A stretch of DNA of 64,000 bases from Escherichia coli (GCF_024223415.1 NZ_CP100500.1); one strand, 5' to 3'; counted from the stretch's first letter, positions 21,486-44,352 are shown. Translations and numbers: made by a program. Notes: generated by a model from the sequence alone, not told the origin.

Positions 21486-22076
21486 ATGTCTCGAATTTTT
21501 GCTTACTGTCGGATATCAACGCTGGATCAGACCACCGAAAATCAACGCCGGGAAATCGAAAGTGCAGGTTTTAAAATCAAACCTCAGCAAATAATCGAAG
21601 AACACATTAGCGGCTCAGCAGCAACCAGTGAGCGTCCTGGTTTTAACCGGTTGCTTGCTCGCCTGAAATGTGGTGATCAATTGATTGTGACAAAACTGGA
21701 TCGCCTTGGTTGTAATGCAATGGATATCAGGAAAACAGTGGAACAACTGACCGAAACAGGTATCAGAGTGCATTGCTTAGCATTGGGGGGCATTGACCTG
21801 ACCAGTCCAACAGGAAAAATGATGATGCACGTAATTTCAGCAGTCGCTGAATTTGAACGAGACCTTTTACTTGAACGAACTCATTCCGGGATAGTAAGAG
21901 CCCGCGGCGCAGGGAAACGTTTTGGTCGACCACCTGTGTTAAATGAAGAACAGAAACAGGTGGTATTCGAACGAATTAAGTCAGGTGTAAGTATAAGTGC
22001 CATTGCCCGGGAATTCAAAACCTCGCGGCAAACCATTTTAAGAGCCAAAGCAAAACTTCAGACACCTGACATATAA
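21486..22076 (+). CDS. pinQ: Serine-recombinase DNA invertase PinQ, 196 aa
   Basis: Resolvase/invertase N-terminal catalytic domain (YCRISTLDQ with active-site Ser) and C-terminal HTH. Confidence 0.9.
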
Positions 22077-22173
22077 AAAATAATCTCGGTGTGAGATGCT
22101 TTACGTCTTCCAAGCCCCCTTCCTTGCCGTAAATGGAAAGATACATCTAATTATAGAATTTATATGTTTTACC

Positions 22174-22749
22174 CTACGGCAGTGCTGGCCATTCAATATC
22201 CTGTGCAGTTGACGTATCAACACGGTTCAGCAACACCCGATACTTTTTCCAGGCTTCCAGCAATGAGGTTTCTTCCTCCGTTGCGATTTCCAGATCTACA
22301 GCATCCTGAAGTGGCGCAATATGCTCACTGGCTACCTGCATCAGGCTGTTTTTTGTTTCTTCCGCCTCCCGGATCCGGAACAGTTTTTCTGCTTCTGCAT
22401 CTTTCACCCAGGCTGTGCCGTTCCACTTCTGAAACTCCCCTTCCGGCGATAACCAGGTAACATTTTCCGGTAACGGACCGAGTTCAGAAATAAATAACGC
22501 GTCCCCTGACGCTACGTCATAAACCGTTTTACCCCGATGGTCTTCATCGAGATGCCACGATGCCTTATCACTGTTGAAAACAGCCACAAAGCCAGCAGGA
22601 ATATCTGGTGGTGCAATATCGGTACTGTTTGCTGGCAGACCTGTATGAGGCGGAATATATGCGTCACCTTCACCAATAAATTCATTAGTTCCGGCCAGCA
22701 GATTATAAATTTTTATGGTCCGTGGTTGTTCACTCATTCTGAATGCCAT
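22174..22749 (-). CDS. tfaQ: Tail fibre assembly protein (TfaQ/TfaR-like), 191 aa
   Basis: Recognised Tfa sequence; start overlaps the stop of the upstream fibre gene. Confidence 0.9.
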
Positions 22750-41726: not shown

Positions 41727-43816
41727 CCTCCGGAAGTCAGCCAGGGGTTAACATCGTCAGTTACTGTTTTCTTCCGTTTTTGTTTTTTAACAGGCGTGGA
41801 TACCGGTTCCGGTGAGGATGACGGTTCGGTACTGTCCTGGACACACTCCAGCCAGGTTTCCCGGCTCGCCCACTCCGGTGCATCCGGCCAGCGGATCTTT
41901 TCGTATCCATGCAGAATGACCAGAGCCTCGGCATACACCATCAGGTCAAAAGCTTCGTTGGCACCGCGACCCGGCTTACTCCATTTCCCGTCACTGCTCC
42001 GCTCTTCATACGTCAGTTCGTCGTAAAACCAGCTCCCCAGCCAGTCAGGGAAATGCACATAGCCGGGACCTGGCGAGTCACGCCATAACGCGTTATTCAC
42101 CCGGTCTTTCAGTGCATCCGTCTGAAGAAGCCAGAGCGGCACATCACCTGCGGCCTGCGCCCGGCGGCCCGTTCGTCCGGTGTTATCAGGGAATGTACGG
42201 CTGATCAGTTTTGCGCGCCGGATGCTGTCACCCTTAAACAGGTAAATACGTTTACCAAGGCCATCACGACGGCAACGACGCCAGAATTTATAGGCATTAT
42301 CAGTGACCCCGTCTTCACCGCCGGAGTCCACCGCCATTGCCATCAGTCGCATTTGTTGAGAAGGATCGGAGGCCAGCGGCCAGCTTTTATGAAAAACATC
42401 CGTCAGCAGGACATCCCAGTCTTCCGGATAGCTGGCCGGATCAATTCGCTGGCTCTCCCCGTCGCAGTCACTGCGCAATGACTGCGTGATGTTGTAACGA
42501 TCAATAATCCAGCGTTCGCCACGACTGCCATAGCCCGTTACCTGAACCACAAAACGGCGATGACGTCCCGCCTGCACATCCACTGTCGCCACAAGGAAAT
42601 TAACGCCATCCGGCACACTGCGGGAAGGAACTGGCTCTGCCCGCTGCTCAAGCAGTTCACTTTTTCGTTGCTCCATGCTGGCACGAGGAAGATAAGGCAA
42701 TCCCCAGTCGGTGTTGATAACCGCCCTGAGTGTTTCTTCGCTTCCTGTCGCTTCATACTCCTGTTCTGCAGTCAGTAATTTGTAAACCAGTTGCGCCCAG
42801 GTCTGATACGCAGCAGCTGGCCCTTCCATCCAGAAACTGGCGATACGGGAGCGGCGCGGTTCACCGGAAACGTTGCCGTTACGATCAATGACCTGACCTT
42901 CACGCAACCAGACTCCTGCACTATTGAGCTCACGCTTTTTCTCCGCAGTGATAATGCCGCTGCAGTGCGGGCAAAGTAGATACGCCGCCTCACTGGCTTT
43001 AAAGGGATCCGGTTCATTACGGTAGCCGGTCATGGCATCCATGGCTGGCTGAAAATATTCACCGCAGTGCGGACATGACCAGTACCAGCGGCGGCGGTCA
43101 CCACGATTGTAAAGGGAAAGAATACCAGTCGTCGGTGGCGCTTCATGAGGCGACTTACGTCGCCATTTGCTGTCGCAGATGTCACGTCCCGGCGAGCTCT
43201 CCACCAGAGTCATCCCGGCGGACATAAATGTGGTGGTACGTTTTGAGGCCAGGGAGAAACCATCACCCTCGCTGTCGATATTCTCCGGAAAACGGTCGTA
43301 ATCGGTTAAGGCGACAAACCGGTAATCCGACGACGACATAATGTTGACCGAGGGCCAACCAATTTTAAGGAACGAGCCATCCCTGAACGTCTTATCATGG
43401 ACATTATTGTCGTTACGACGTGGACTCATTCTTTTCTTTACCGCCGCACTGCTTCTGAACGTTCTGTCGAGGCGCTTTTTAGAATGCTCGCGGGCCTTAT
43501 CTTCGGTCATCTGCACAACGAGCATGTCCGAAGGATCGCAAACGATGGTATAGACAATCCATCCATCGATCAGACCAATGGTCTTCCCTGTTCGCGCAGG
43601 ACCAACAAAAATCACCGCATCGTATTCACGCGATGCCAGGCAGTTCATGGGCTCAATGATGTAGGGTGTCAGTTCAGGATCCCATGGCACCGAGTTACCA
43701 GCCCCCTTGGGAACACGCATGAATTTTTTAACAGCCTCCGAAATCGGCATGCGACGTGGTGGGGAAAATCCTGCCGATATGTCCCTTCCCAAATTTCGGG
43801 CTGATGAAAAACCCAT
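41717..43816 (-). CDS. Terminase large subunit (lambda gpA family), 699 aa
   Basis: Walker A-like VGPARTGKT; strong AGGAGG SD; followed by W and portal. Confidence 0.9.
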   Translation of the reverse strand: MGFSSARNLGRDISAGFSPPRRMPISEAVKKFMRVPKGAGNSVPWDPELTPYIIEPMNCLASREYDAVIFVGPARTGKTIGLIDGWIVYTIVCDPSDMLVVQMTEDKAREHSKKRLDRTFRSSAAVKKRMSPRRNDNNVHDKTFRDGSFLKIGWPSVNIMSSSDYRFVALTDYDRFPENIDSEGDGFSLASKRTTTFMSAGMTLVESSPGRDICDSKWRRKSPHEAPPTTGILSLYNRGDRRRWYWSCPHCGEYFQPAMDAMTGYRNEPDPFKASEAAYLLCPHCSGIITAEKKRELNSAGVWLREGQVIDRNGNVSGEPRRSRIASFWMEGPAAAYQTWAQLVYKLLTAEQEYEATGSEETLRAVINTDWGLPYLPRASMEQRKSELLEQRAEPVPSRSVPDGVNFLVATVDVQAGRHRRFVVQVTGYGSRGERWIIDRYNITQSLRSDCDGESQRIDPASYPEDWDVLLTDVFHKSWPLASDPSQQMRLMAMAVDSGGEDGVTDNAYKFWRRCRRDGLGKRIYLFKGDSIRRAKLISRTFPDNTGRTGRRAQAAGDVPLWLLQTDALKDRVNNALWRDSPGPGYVHFPDWLGSWFYDELTYEERSSDGKWSKPGRGANEAFDLMVYAEALVILHGYEKIRWPDAPEWASRETWLECVQDSTEPSSSPEPVSTPVKKQKRKKTVTDDVNPWLTSGGWL

Positions 43817-43824
43817 TATTCCTC

Positions 43825-44352
43825 CTAGAGACTCTCTCCTTCCTCATCAGGAATTAATTCAGCAGCACAAGCCTCGTAGGATTTTTCCTGAAGAGTGTAT
43901 CGCAGGTCATCAATGGCCTGCTGTACAACGCCGACGGCCTGAGGAGTCAGGGCGCAATCGCGTTCAAGAACATCCGGAATTGTCTCCAGAACCTGGACGA
44001 CAGCCTTTCTCATGGACGAATAGACGATGACTACTTCATCAACGGGGATGAGTTTTCGCTGCTCCTTTTCCAGCTTGATCCTTTCATTTTCAGACTGGTA
44101 CCAGTCCTTTCTCTCTTTCGGCTCCATACGGGATGGATCATGAACAGAGTCTGCTGCCTCATGCTTCACACTAAACAGGGCTGGCCCGACATGCTGCAGG
44201 GCGTAAACGGGGTTCCCCCTGACAGTCGCAGCCACAGGAGTGTTGGCCGCGAGGAGCCGTTTTTTTACTGTGTCCCGGTGAAGCCCAAAGGCCTCAGCGA
44301 TTTTAAAAACACTCCAGTAATAAGCATCACCGATCCCGCTCACATTTGACAT
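43825..44352 (-). CDS. Terminase small subunit (Nu1-like), about 175 aa
   Basis: Start at MSNVSGIGDAYYW with GGAG SD; N-terminal HTH-like region; immediately upstream of the large subunit. Confidence 0.7.
   Translation of the reverse strand: MSNVSGIGDAYYWSVFKIAEAFGLHRDTVKKRLLAANTPVAATVRGNPVYALQHVGPALFSVKHEAADSVHDPSRMEPKERKDWYQSENERIKLEKEQRKLIPVDEVVIVYSSMRKAVVQVLETIPDVLERDCALTPQAVGVVQQAIDDLRYTLQEKSYEACAAELIPDEEGESL

Follow-up and report, generated by a model that had tools for sequence, protein, structure and literature searches.

The region 21486-44352 of a 64,000-nucleotide stretch of an Escherichia coli chromosome (NZ_CP100500.1; this whole stretch is hereafter the window) is very likely the undamaged virion module of a lambdoid prophage that occupies the ydfJ/rspB site and belongs to the family of K-12 Qin, Tritos and mEp460_ev081. 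It holds 21 contiguous virion genes, from the small terminase gene to tfa (22174-44352), carried by the minus strand and not by the plus strand; pinQ alone lies on the plus strand. The order of the reading frames is TerS, TerL, a small adaptor in the W position, portal, ClpP-protease/capsid fusion, cement protein and Gifsy-2-family connector, followed by Z, U, V, G, T, H, M, L, K, I, J, Lom, Stf and Tfa. The edges of the span are the start of pinQ at 21486 and, at 44352, the TerS start codon as annotated in Tritos; a longer frame begins at 44382. The features of this region and of the adjoining cos are as follows.

44500..44613, minus strand, candidate cos region (junction 44548/44549, with GGGCGGGAGCGT on the terminase side; 8-bp repeat array at 44578-44613)
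43825..44352, minus strand, TerS of the DUF1441 type, not Nu1 (Pfam DUF1441, E 1.9e-44; 100% identical to Tritos TerS)
41717..43816, minus strand, terminase large subunit of the gpA family (Pfam GpA_ATPase and GpA_nuclease; 99.4% to Tritos)
40000..41720, minus strand, portal (502 aa) and 70-aa adaptor in the W position (Pfam Phage_portal_2; 99%, full length)
38028..40151, minus strand, ClpP-like prohead protease/major capsid fusion (Pfam CLP_protease and Phage_capsid_4)
37350..37986, minus strand, Gifsy-2-family head-tail connector (91 aa) and DUF2190 cement/decoration protein (Pfam Gifsy-2 and Phage_cement_2; 98-100%)
35608..37338, minus strand, V major tail, U tail terminator and Z minor tail proteins (Pfam Phage_TTP_12 and Big_2, Phage_tail_U, Minor_tail_Z)
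34823..35550, minus strand, tail assembly chaperones G and T (Pfam Phage_TAC_2, Phage_tail_T; T in the -1 frame)
31786..34851, minus strand, tape measure protein H, 1021 aa (Pfam TMP_2 and Tape_meas_lam_C; 98%, full length, ungapped)
29456..31786, minus strand, tail tip assembly proteins I, K, L and M (Pfam Lambda_tail_I, Prok-JAB and NLPC_P60, Phage_tail_L, Phage_min_tail)
25982..29395, minus strand, tail tip/host specificity protein J, 1137 aa (six J-specific Pfam domains)
25312..25911, minus strand, outer-membrane protein Lom, an accessory gene (Pfam Ail_Lom, E 2.8e-121)
22749..25253, minus strand, side tail fibre Stf, 832-834 aa (open frame; Pfam phage_tail_N, three Phage_fiber_2, Collar)
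22174..22749, minus strand, tail fibre assembly protein Tfa, 191 aa (Pfam Caudo_TAP)
21486..22076, plus strand, pinQ-type serine DNA invertase, 196 aa (Pfam Resolvase and HTH_7)

Every gene assignment is backed by Pfam. All 19 proteins from TerS to Lom gave gap-free, full-length tblastn alignments at 94-100% identity with Tritos and mEp460 queries, a figure that refers to Tritos and/or mEp460, TerS and the Z-like protein each satisfying it with one phage only. TerS aligns to its mEp460 counterpart at 42% over partial length, while the Z-like protein is 99.5% identical to that of mEp460 without gaps and 80% identical, with gaps, to that of Tritos. The frames of Stf (834 aa), Tfa and Pin contain no internal stops. 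Starts and stops overlap by 4 nt at TerL/W, Z/U and K/I and by 1 nt at W/portal, H/M and Stf/Tfa, as calculated from the coordinates, a pattern typical of translational coupling, and about 98% of the span is coding by the same arithmetic. The alignments revealed no frameshift or premature stop in the structural genes, and the earlier description of about 22 kb of intact structural genes in a Qin-type prophage, with open frames and coupled starts, is borne out.

That description had also called the module lambda-like, which is correct for part of it. Judged by family assignment, the lambda families are limited to the tail, TerL and the portal. We rejected a lambda-type head (Nu1, C/Nu3, D, E, FI, FII), since the Pfam families found are DUF1441, CLP_protease with Phage_capsid_4, DUF2190 and Gifsy-2. 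The protease/capsid fusion is 99% identical over its full length to the proteins of both Tritos and mEp460, and no similarity was detectable between TerS and K-12 NohA, which is of the Nu1 type. On the window, the linear Tritos record starts and finishes at neighbouring bases, 44548 and 44549, and 60 bp on each side of this junction are conserved, save one additional 8-bp repeat unit. The placement of the candidate cos assumes that the ends of that record are the true cohesive ends. The sequence at the junction, GGGCGGGAGCGT, resembles lambda cosN (GGGCGGCGACCT), an exact copy of which is absent from the window.

The tail genes Z, U, V, G, T, H, M, L, K, I and J stand in lambda order, each above the curated cut-off of its own Pfam family. 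V, U and Z are 98.8-99.5% identical to mEp460, ungapped and full length, and V and U reach 96-98.5%, also ungapped, with Tritos. I, K, L and M show 96-99% identity over their full length, and J 96%, full length and ungapped, with both Tritos and mEp460. T overlaps the end of G in the -1 frame; the heptamer there, G GAA AAG, is not a canonical X XXY YYZ, and the junction CCGGAAAAGTCCTGA recurs unchanged in mEp460, Tritos, ev081 and NCTC10444.

At the distal end of the operon, Lom is 95.5% identical to mEp460 Lom over its full length, and Tfa is 100% identical to that of NCTC10444 and 96% to that of ev081. Stf is 150-190 residues shorter than the proteins of its relatives (986 and 1023 aa), the differences lying in the Ala/Ser-rich shaft, and three 132-nt repeats are found within stf at 23953-24348. 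Lambda grows without functional side fibres. Pin is 99.5% identical to the Pin proteins of Tritos, ev081 and NCTC10444, and its gene lies 97 bp from tfa. No invertible segment was found around pinQ, where there is a single tfa and a single stf 3' end, and no inverted repeats bracket tfa/stf, the best pairs (14-22 nt, 73-87% complementarity) being misplaced. A Pin/Gin-type invertible fibre switch, as in the e14 P segment or the Mu G segment, was rejected for want of inverted crossover sites and alternative cassettes.

The module is embedded in a Qin-type backbone, which reads pin ... cos-ydfO-gnsB-cspI-lysis-cspB-Q-ydfU-rem-hokD ... cro/repressor-ydfA-DicF-dicB-ydfD-exo-xis-int, is supported by colinear DNA alignments to Tritos, K-12 and KV7, and is visible here up to the start of xis. 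Its main features outside the virion module are the following.

20144..20154, no strand, attL core GAAATCCATAA (11-mer), where truncated ydfJ meets the prophage
47425..48980, minus strand, lysis cassette of holin, YdfR, endolysin and Rz with the Rz1 frame embedded (99-100%, full length, to Tritos)
50887..51636, minus strand, late antiterminator Q of the ydfT type (97.6%, full length, to Tritos Q)
53046..53297, minus strand, rem, antirepressor of the DicA-type repressor (annotated rem in KV7 and K-12; function according to bioRxiv 10.1101/2023.04.14.536235)
55569..56888, minus strand, transposase remnant of the ISEsa1 family (IS1202 group), 439-aa frame (Pfam HTH_28 and rve_3)
56942..57361, minus strand, DUF977/Ren-like accessory protein with a replaced C-terminus (residues 1-119 of 121 alone align to ev081 and Tritos)
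57402..59565, O-like replication initiator (321 aa), YdaT-like protein and Cro/DicC-type regulator, all minus strand, and DicA-type repressor, plus strand
60751..63918, plus strand, early leftward operon with DicF sRNA (Rfam DicF, 76.7 bits), dicB, ydfD and an 823-aa exonuclease

The lysis genes and Q, which the earlier note had also considered intact, match Tritos over their full length, as does ydfU; dicB, ydfD and the exonuclease are likewise full length, at 98-99%. In the immunity region, where Pfam identified HTH_3, P22_Cro and YdaT_toxin, the repressor, Cro and YdaT-like proteins are 100% identical to those of the isolated phage mEp460_ev081, and the replication initiator (phrog_391, replication initiation O-like) 99.7%, all over their full length. 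We therefore rejected a prophage that is cryptic by loss of replication or immunity, as well as one cryptic in the K-12 Qin sense by loss of structural or packaging genes, all of which are present at full length. The claim that this prophage is far less decayed than K-12 Qin is upheld: its readable genes are full length compared to those of isolated phages, and K-12 has no such module.

Beside the repressor, a 517-bp segment stands in place of the 3' end of ydfB and ydfC, and within it lies an unannotated frame of 106 codons (60152-60472, minus strand). The frame belongs to a conserved family that has no model in Pfam or PHROG, and whose members in Yersinia occupy the same position next to a prophage repressor. 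It could encode a new protein of prophage immunity regions that acts in superinfection exclusion or defence, a proposal we regard as rather unlikely.

The IS insertion that had been placed in the replication region does correspond to a transposase frame in the early region; it lies, however, downstream of the intact O-like gene, next to flxA. A search for terminal inverted repeats of this remnant found none, it is annotated as partial in KV7 and NCTC10444, and it is common to K-12 (ydfW being its tail end) and the deposited phage record PhiR42_1. Relative to PhiR42_1, about 2 kb are deleted beside it, with the junction at 57002-57011. No collateral change is visible other than the replaced C-terminus of the DUF977 protein (phrog_142, moron category).

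With the window ending at base 64000, 10 bases into xis, the rest of xis, int and attR lie beyond it. The attL core is the same as the attR core in KV7 and differs from the Tritos attP by 1 base; alignment to the Tritos attP region reaches window position 20141, and ydfJ is marked as truncated in the annotation of relatives too. The KV7 integrase at the ydfJ/rspB site is 98.8% identical to the Tritos integrase. Adding to the 43.9 kb in the window about 1.6 kb of xis-int as in Tritos gives by arithmetic an estimated prophage length of about 45.4 kb, close (within 2%) to the 46.4 kb of Tritos and the 45.9 kb of ev081. Alternatively, an intact module may sit in a prophage that has already been grounded, either through an invisible regulatory mutation or through a lesion outside the window such as an IS in xis or damage to int, too recently for the virion genes to have decayed. 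We give this reading serious weight, at somewhat less than an even chance. In KV7, the closest relative in the flanks (99.9-100% identity to the window), IS5 interrupts xis and the capsid-to-stf segment has been lost as well; in O26:H11 11368, int is truncated and xis contains an IS66-type element; and the window itself holds the transposase remnant and its adjoining loss of about 2 kb. Conversely, NCTC9699 and STEC409 (99.6% over the right half) keep xis and int intact, the sole broken part within the window is the tail end of an accessory gene, and the same remnant occurs in PhiR42_1, whose record was submitted as a whole phage genome and names a propagation host. Point mutations in promoters, operators or cos subsites are beyond judgement by sequence comparison. 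In near-identical relatives xis and int are either intact or broken by an IS; this prophage may excise and produce particles. Qin is here probably a full-length, recently active temperate phage of the Tritos/mEp460_ev081 type.

How such a prophage would work can be proposed from its gene set and from published work on relatives. Silence would be kept by the DicA/DicC-type repressor/Cro switch, which would open by the Rem antirepressor or spontaneously, not by RecA-driven cleavage: the repressor is short, of the DicA type, with an HTH only and no cleavage domain. The K-12 DicA switch is opened by the antirepressor Rem and does not respond to SOS inducers (bioRxiv 10.1101/2023.04.14.536235; PMC5069750), and ciprofloxacin does not raise the output of Tritos (PMC9928086). 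For these reasons mitomycin C would be a poor induction test. Early transcription would then yield the O-like replication initiator and Q, and antitermination by Q would allow read-through of the lysis cassette and then of the late operon. The DUF1441/gpA terminase would cut cos (44548/9) and fill the protease/capsid-fusion head through the lambda-family portal, and the lambda-type tail (Z, U, V, G/G-T, H, M, L, K, I, J), with Stf/Tfa side fibres, would be joined to the head. Judged by alignment, the genes of this proposed pathway that lie in the window are all intact, each nearly identical to a gene of an isolated phage. The strain may release an active Tritos/ev081 recombinant phage with the IS remnant as cargo.

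Of 5,426 complete E. coli genomes, 1,637, about a third, carry the module or large parts of it, usually at several places (median 4 per genome). This leaves ample scope for recombination, and hybrid phages between co-resident prophages have been observed in LF82 (PMC9928086). The host might keep the module for its own benefit, as a source of tail or head parts or of homologous DNA for the rescue of, or recombination with, incoming lambdoid phages, and not as part of an autonomous phage. We hold this to be highly improbable, since relatives decay randomly (the KV7 deletion, loss of the module in K-12, scattered IS elements) with no particular subset retained, while packaging, lysis, replication and immunity genes are here complete and together, as in free phages. 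Among these 5,426 genomes no match to the module was better than 98.6%; there is thus no tested identical copy from which function could be transferred.

The main value of these results is a correct annotation: Qin is here not the 20-kb relic of K-12. This is useful for predicting phage release, transduction and lysogenic conversion (lom, relBE, hokD, dicBF, cold-shock genes) in this strain. That K-12 cryptic prophages have intact, active relatives, that a Qin-type backbone stays constant while its head modules are exchanged, and that the Qin locus decays through deletions and IS insertions arising independently, in xis in particular, is already found in the literature or in public genomes. 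An active Qin-site phage with this module, Tritos, is likewise already known, and the module is real but ordinary.

Tritos (OV696610), prophage 3 of E. coli LF82, has the same gene order over its whole genome. Spontaneous production of Tritos is described, as are plaques on MG1655 hsdR- and images that show a siphovirus (PMC9928086). Its structural proteins are 96-100% identical to those described here, with the Z-like protein (80%) and G (94.6%) as exceptions. The match is exact for TerS and cos and about 98-100% for lysis, Q, exonuclease, dicB and pin. It carries its own annotated DicF sRNA, and its integrase is of the type of this chromosomal site. Its immunity and replication genes differ, CI being 26% identical and the replication protein sharing its last 20 residues only, as does its nin region, with an ImmA-type gene where the window has relBE-flxA and the transposase. 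Tritos lacks lom and has a different distal Stf and additional fibre genes. The phage mEp460_ev081 (LR597641), from an infant gut E. coli, has the same pin-tfa-stf-lom-J...portal order, with 96% DNA identity across 95% of the module. Its small-terminase end differs, the DNA match ending at query 22235 (window ~43720), at the start of the TerL gene; its Q/nin region is different, its Stf longer (1023 aa), and it has no transposase remnant. The phages mEp460 (NC_019716) and cdtI (NC_009514) carry the same head/tail module (96-97% DNA; TerL to Lom full length) with early regions and integrases unrelated to those here, and are not Qin-site phages.

K-12 MG1655 Qin occupies the same ydfJ/rspB site, with a backbone 98.6% identical from ydfO to ydfW, and shares pinQ-tfaQ, dicF-dicB-ydfD and rem-hokD-relBE with the window. 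It lacks the morphogenetic module, retaining at the corresponding place only the remnants noted earlier, pinQ-tfaQ-stfQ(963 bp)-nohA, and also lacks window positions 55753-58590 (replication genes); its int is pseudogenised and its dicA allele 57% identical to the repressor here. Since nohA is of the Nu1 type and unrelated to the present TerS, K-12 Qin is not a simple deletion derivative of this module. PhiR42_1 (PV340562), for which we found no describing paper in the literature, has a Qin-type backbone with the same replication genes, transposase remnant, flxA, relBE and hokD, and also shares rem, Q, the lysis genes and pin-tfa-stf with the window. It has about 2 kb more between DUF977 and the transposase, and its head, unlike the present one, is of the lambda type (Nu1, A, W, B, C/Nu3, D, E, FI, FII). 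Lambda itself shares the tail families and their order from Z to J, lom, stf and tfa, the gpA terminase, the portal family and the G/T arrangement, whereas the cleavage domain of its repressor has no counterpart in the repressor described here.

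The virion genes of the Qin-type prophage form a single unbroken chain on the minus strand, from TerS to Tfa. Several adjacent genes overlap by 1 or 4 bases, consistent with translational coupling. The description of coupled structural genes in canonical order given in the earlier note is borne out.

Virion genes of the module (window coordinates, strand, product; families from Pfam)
43825-44352, minus, TerS, DUF1441 type
41717-43816, minus, TerL, lambda family
41508-41720, minus, adaptor of 70 aa
40000-41508, minus, portal, lambda family
38028-40151, minus, ClpP-protease/capsid fusion
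37618-37986, minus, cement protein, DUF2190
37350-37625, minus, connector, Gifsy-2 family
36760-37338, minus, Z
36362-36763, minus, U
35608-36351, minus, V
35161-35550, minus, G
34823-35152, minus, T, in the -1 frame over the end of G
31786-34851, minus, H
31457-31786, minus, M
30749-31447, minus, L
30001-30744, minus, K
29456-30004, minus, I
25982-29395, minus, J
25312-25911, minus, Lom
22749-25253, minus, Stf
22174-22749, minus, Tfa

The intactness of these genes was assessed by searching the translated annotated genes of phages mEp460 (NC_019716) and Tritos (OV696610) against the window. From TerS to Lom, each protein has, in at least one of the two phages, a full-length and ungapped counterpart of 94-100% identity. 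TerS shares 100% identity with Tritos and only 42% with mEp460, and Z matches mEp460 ungapped at 99.5% and Tritos with gaps at 80%. Tfa and Pin are both full length, Pfam returned the expected family for every module protein, and four relatives share exactly the G/T junction sequence of the window. Alignment thus revealed none of the frameshifts or stops that the earlier note had named as grounds for refutation. The label "lambda-like" suits the portal and large terminase as well as the tail, but not the rest of the head (DUF1441, ClpP/capsid fusion, DUF2190 and Gifsy-2 families). The observation is confirmed, and its interpretation is supported with corrections.

The side fibre gene is an open frame of 834 codons, whose product combines the N-terminal domain of such fibres with a collar domain and three fibre repeats of 44 residues each. 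Its product is 150-190 residues shorter than those of strain NCTC10444 (986 aa) and phage mEp460_ev081 (LR597641, hereafter ev081; 1023 aa), the variation residing in an Ala/Ser-rich shaft upstream of the three 132-nt fibre repeats (23953-24348). We also considered a working Pin-invertible fibre segment, which was ruled out since there are neither bracketing inverted repeats nor a second cassette. Rfam reported a match to its 'IS009' family inside tfa (22208-22406, minus strand).

Up to about 20.1 kb the window consists of E. coli chromosome (sad to dcp, ydfI and a truncated ydfJ), and from there a lambdoid prophage continues beyond the window end. In the chromosomal flank, Rfam detected the Hfq-binding sRNA STnc560 (10574-10787, minus strand). 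No tRNA gene, as integration target or as cargo, was found within the window. The attL core GAAATCCATAA at 20144-20154 is identical to the attR of strain KV7. The span first assigned to the module, 21486-44352, opens exactly with the first base of pinQ (plus strand), and its other limit is the TerS start codon. The window stops 10 bases into xis, with int and attR further out. Supposing a xis-int segment like that of Tritos, the whole prophage comes to about 45.4 kb, a length that differs by no more than 2% from those of Tritos and ev081 and is therefore compatible with packaging. The linear Tritos record has its two ends at adjoining window bases, 44548/44549, and its end on the terminase side, GGGCGGGAGCGT, resembles the lambda cohesive end; if the record ends are the true cohesive ends, cos would therefore be in place. 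The exact lambda cosN is absent from the window, a related sequence lying at the Tritos end junction instead. About 30 bp from this junction, at 44578-44613, we observed an 8-bp tandem repeat of GACAGCCT in 4.4 copies, one more than in KV7 and Tritos; the 120 bp examined on this stretch of the junction hold no other length difference. This repeat is possibly a terminase or packaging-termination site.

Outside the module, holin, YdfR, endolysin, Rz, Q, YdfU, an 823-aa exonuclease, DicB and YdfD are all full length and 93-100% identical to Tritos, so that the lysis genes and Q are intact as first described. DicF was detected by Rfam, which also placed a cspA-type thermoregulator leader ahead of each of the prophage genes cspI and cspB (46822-47207 and 49718-50110, both minus strand). 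The repressor, Cro and a YdaT-like protein are 100% identical to those of ev081, a phage obtained from E. coli of the infant gut, and the O-like replication initiator is 99.7% identical; the repressor is short, HTH-only and of the DicA type. Two further genes lie in this part of the prophage.

53046-53297, rem, present in the prophage
55569-56888, ISEsa1-family transposase ORF of 439 codons, downstream of the replication genes and adjoining flxA

The transposase had been taken for an IS insertion in the replication region. This reading does not hold, since the O-like gene has its full length and the DUF977 gene separates it from the transposase, which is downstream of the replication genes. 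We found no convincing terminal inverted repeats, hence the ends of the IS are undefined. The remnant is old: K-12 ydfW is its tail end, and the phage record PhiR42_1 (PV340562) also carries it. Next to it, 57002-57011 is the junction of a deletion of about 2 kb relative to PhiR42_1, where a methyltransferase and small ORFs are missing. Through this deletion the DUF977 protein, assigned by PHROG to a family classed as a Ren-like exclusion moron, has a foreign C-terminus in place of its last 19 or so residues. It is the only visible lesion. Elsewhere, a 517-bp segment (60016-60533) takes the place of the ydfB 3' end and ydfC found in K-12 and Tritos. Within this segment lies an ORF of 106 codons (60152-60472, minus strand), which would encode a small hydrophobic protein; it is unannotated in KV7 and has no Pfam or PHROG family. 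Among its 60 homologues, full-length ones at 40-58% identity occur in Yersinia, Herminiimonas and Reinekea, and that of Yersinia enterocolitica has as immediate neighbours a YdaS/Cro-like gene and the HTH repressor of a prophage. We infer that this ORF is a candidate accessory (exclusion) gene of the immunity region.

Among prophages 99.5-99.9% identical over the right half, those of strains NCTC9699 and STEC409 have intact xis and int. KV7 carries IS5 in xis, and O26:H11 strain 11368 an IS66-type element in xis together with a truncated int; the two insertions arose independently, each grounding the prophage at one and the same small gene. As the state of xis and int varies among near-identical relatives, excision competence here cannot be deduced from them. 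In K-12, DicA and DicC act like CI and Cro. Their switch opens either spontaneously, in a subpopulation, or under the action of the Qin-encoded antirepressor Rem, and SOS does not induce it (bioRxiv 10.1101/2023.04.14.536235; PMC5069750). Gene content and this published work make it most likely that the prophage here uses a DicA-type switch, opened spontaneously or by Rem and not by SOS. Tritos, prophage 3 of E. coli LF82, is a siphovirus that is spontaneously released at about 3x10^6 genomes/mL and forms plaques on MG1655 hsdR-; ciprofloxacin did not raise its output (PMC9928086). The mitomycin C test suggested in the earlier note could therefore give a negative result even with a fully functional prophage.

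The module is present (at least 80% coverage) in 1,637 of 5,426 complete E. coli genomes, its best match reaching at most 98.6%, and in roughly 780-790 of the 1,637 it is joined to Qin-type flanks as here. For this chromosomal site, the 791 genomes counted at the left junction are an upper bound, because a match lacking the first 2 kb still passes the coverage threshold. Isolated phages in GenBank (mEp460, cdtI, ev081, Tritos and others) carry the same module at 95-97% identity. The module is accordingly not new, an active Qin-site phage having already been described in Tritos, and the finding, being already known, is of low interest.

As the earlier note had stated, K-12 Qin retains only remnants at the module position; these are pinQ-tfaQ-stfQ'-nohA. 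That K-12 Qin arose from the module simply by deletion was considered and rejected: the window has nothing corresponding to about 1.4 kb of the K-12 MG1655 locus (L006 7583-8970, with part of stfQ, nohA and ynfO), and NohA, which is of the Nu1 type, has no detectable similarity to the window TerS. In KV7, whose flanks match the window at 99.9-100% identity, some 14.6 kb have been lost between the capsid 3' end and the 5' part of stf (L002, the KV7 locus, 5029-7703; window about 23400-38400), leaving 8.2 kb versus 22.9 kb in the window. This decay route is independent of that of K-12. PhiR42_1, usable only as a deposited phage record as we found no paper on the origin of the PhiR phages, shares the Qin-type backbone of the window but has lambda-type head genes (Nu1 to FII; L007, its record, 23688-31462). 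Two unrelated head modules are therefore found on this backbone: that of the window, Tritos and ev081, with the DUF1441 TerS (window 43825-44382) and the ClpP/capsid fusion, and the lambda-type Nu1 to FII of PhiR42_1, the type from which the K-12 nohA relic (L006 7799-8368) descends.
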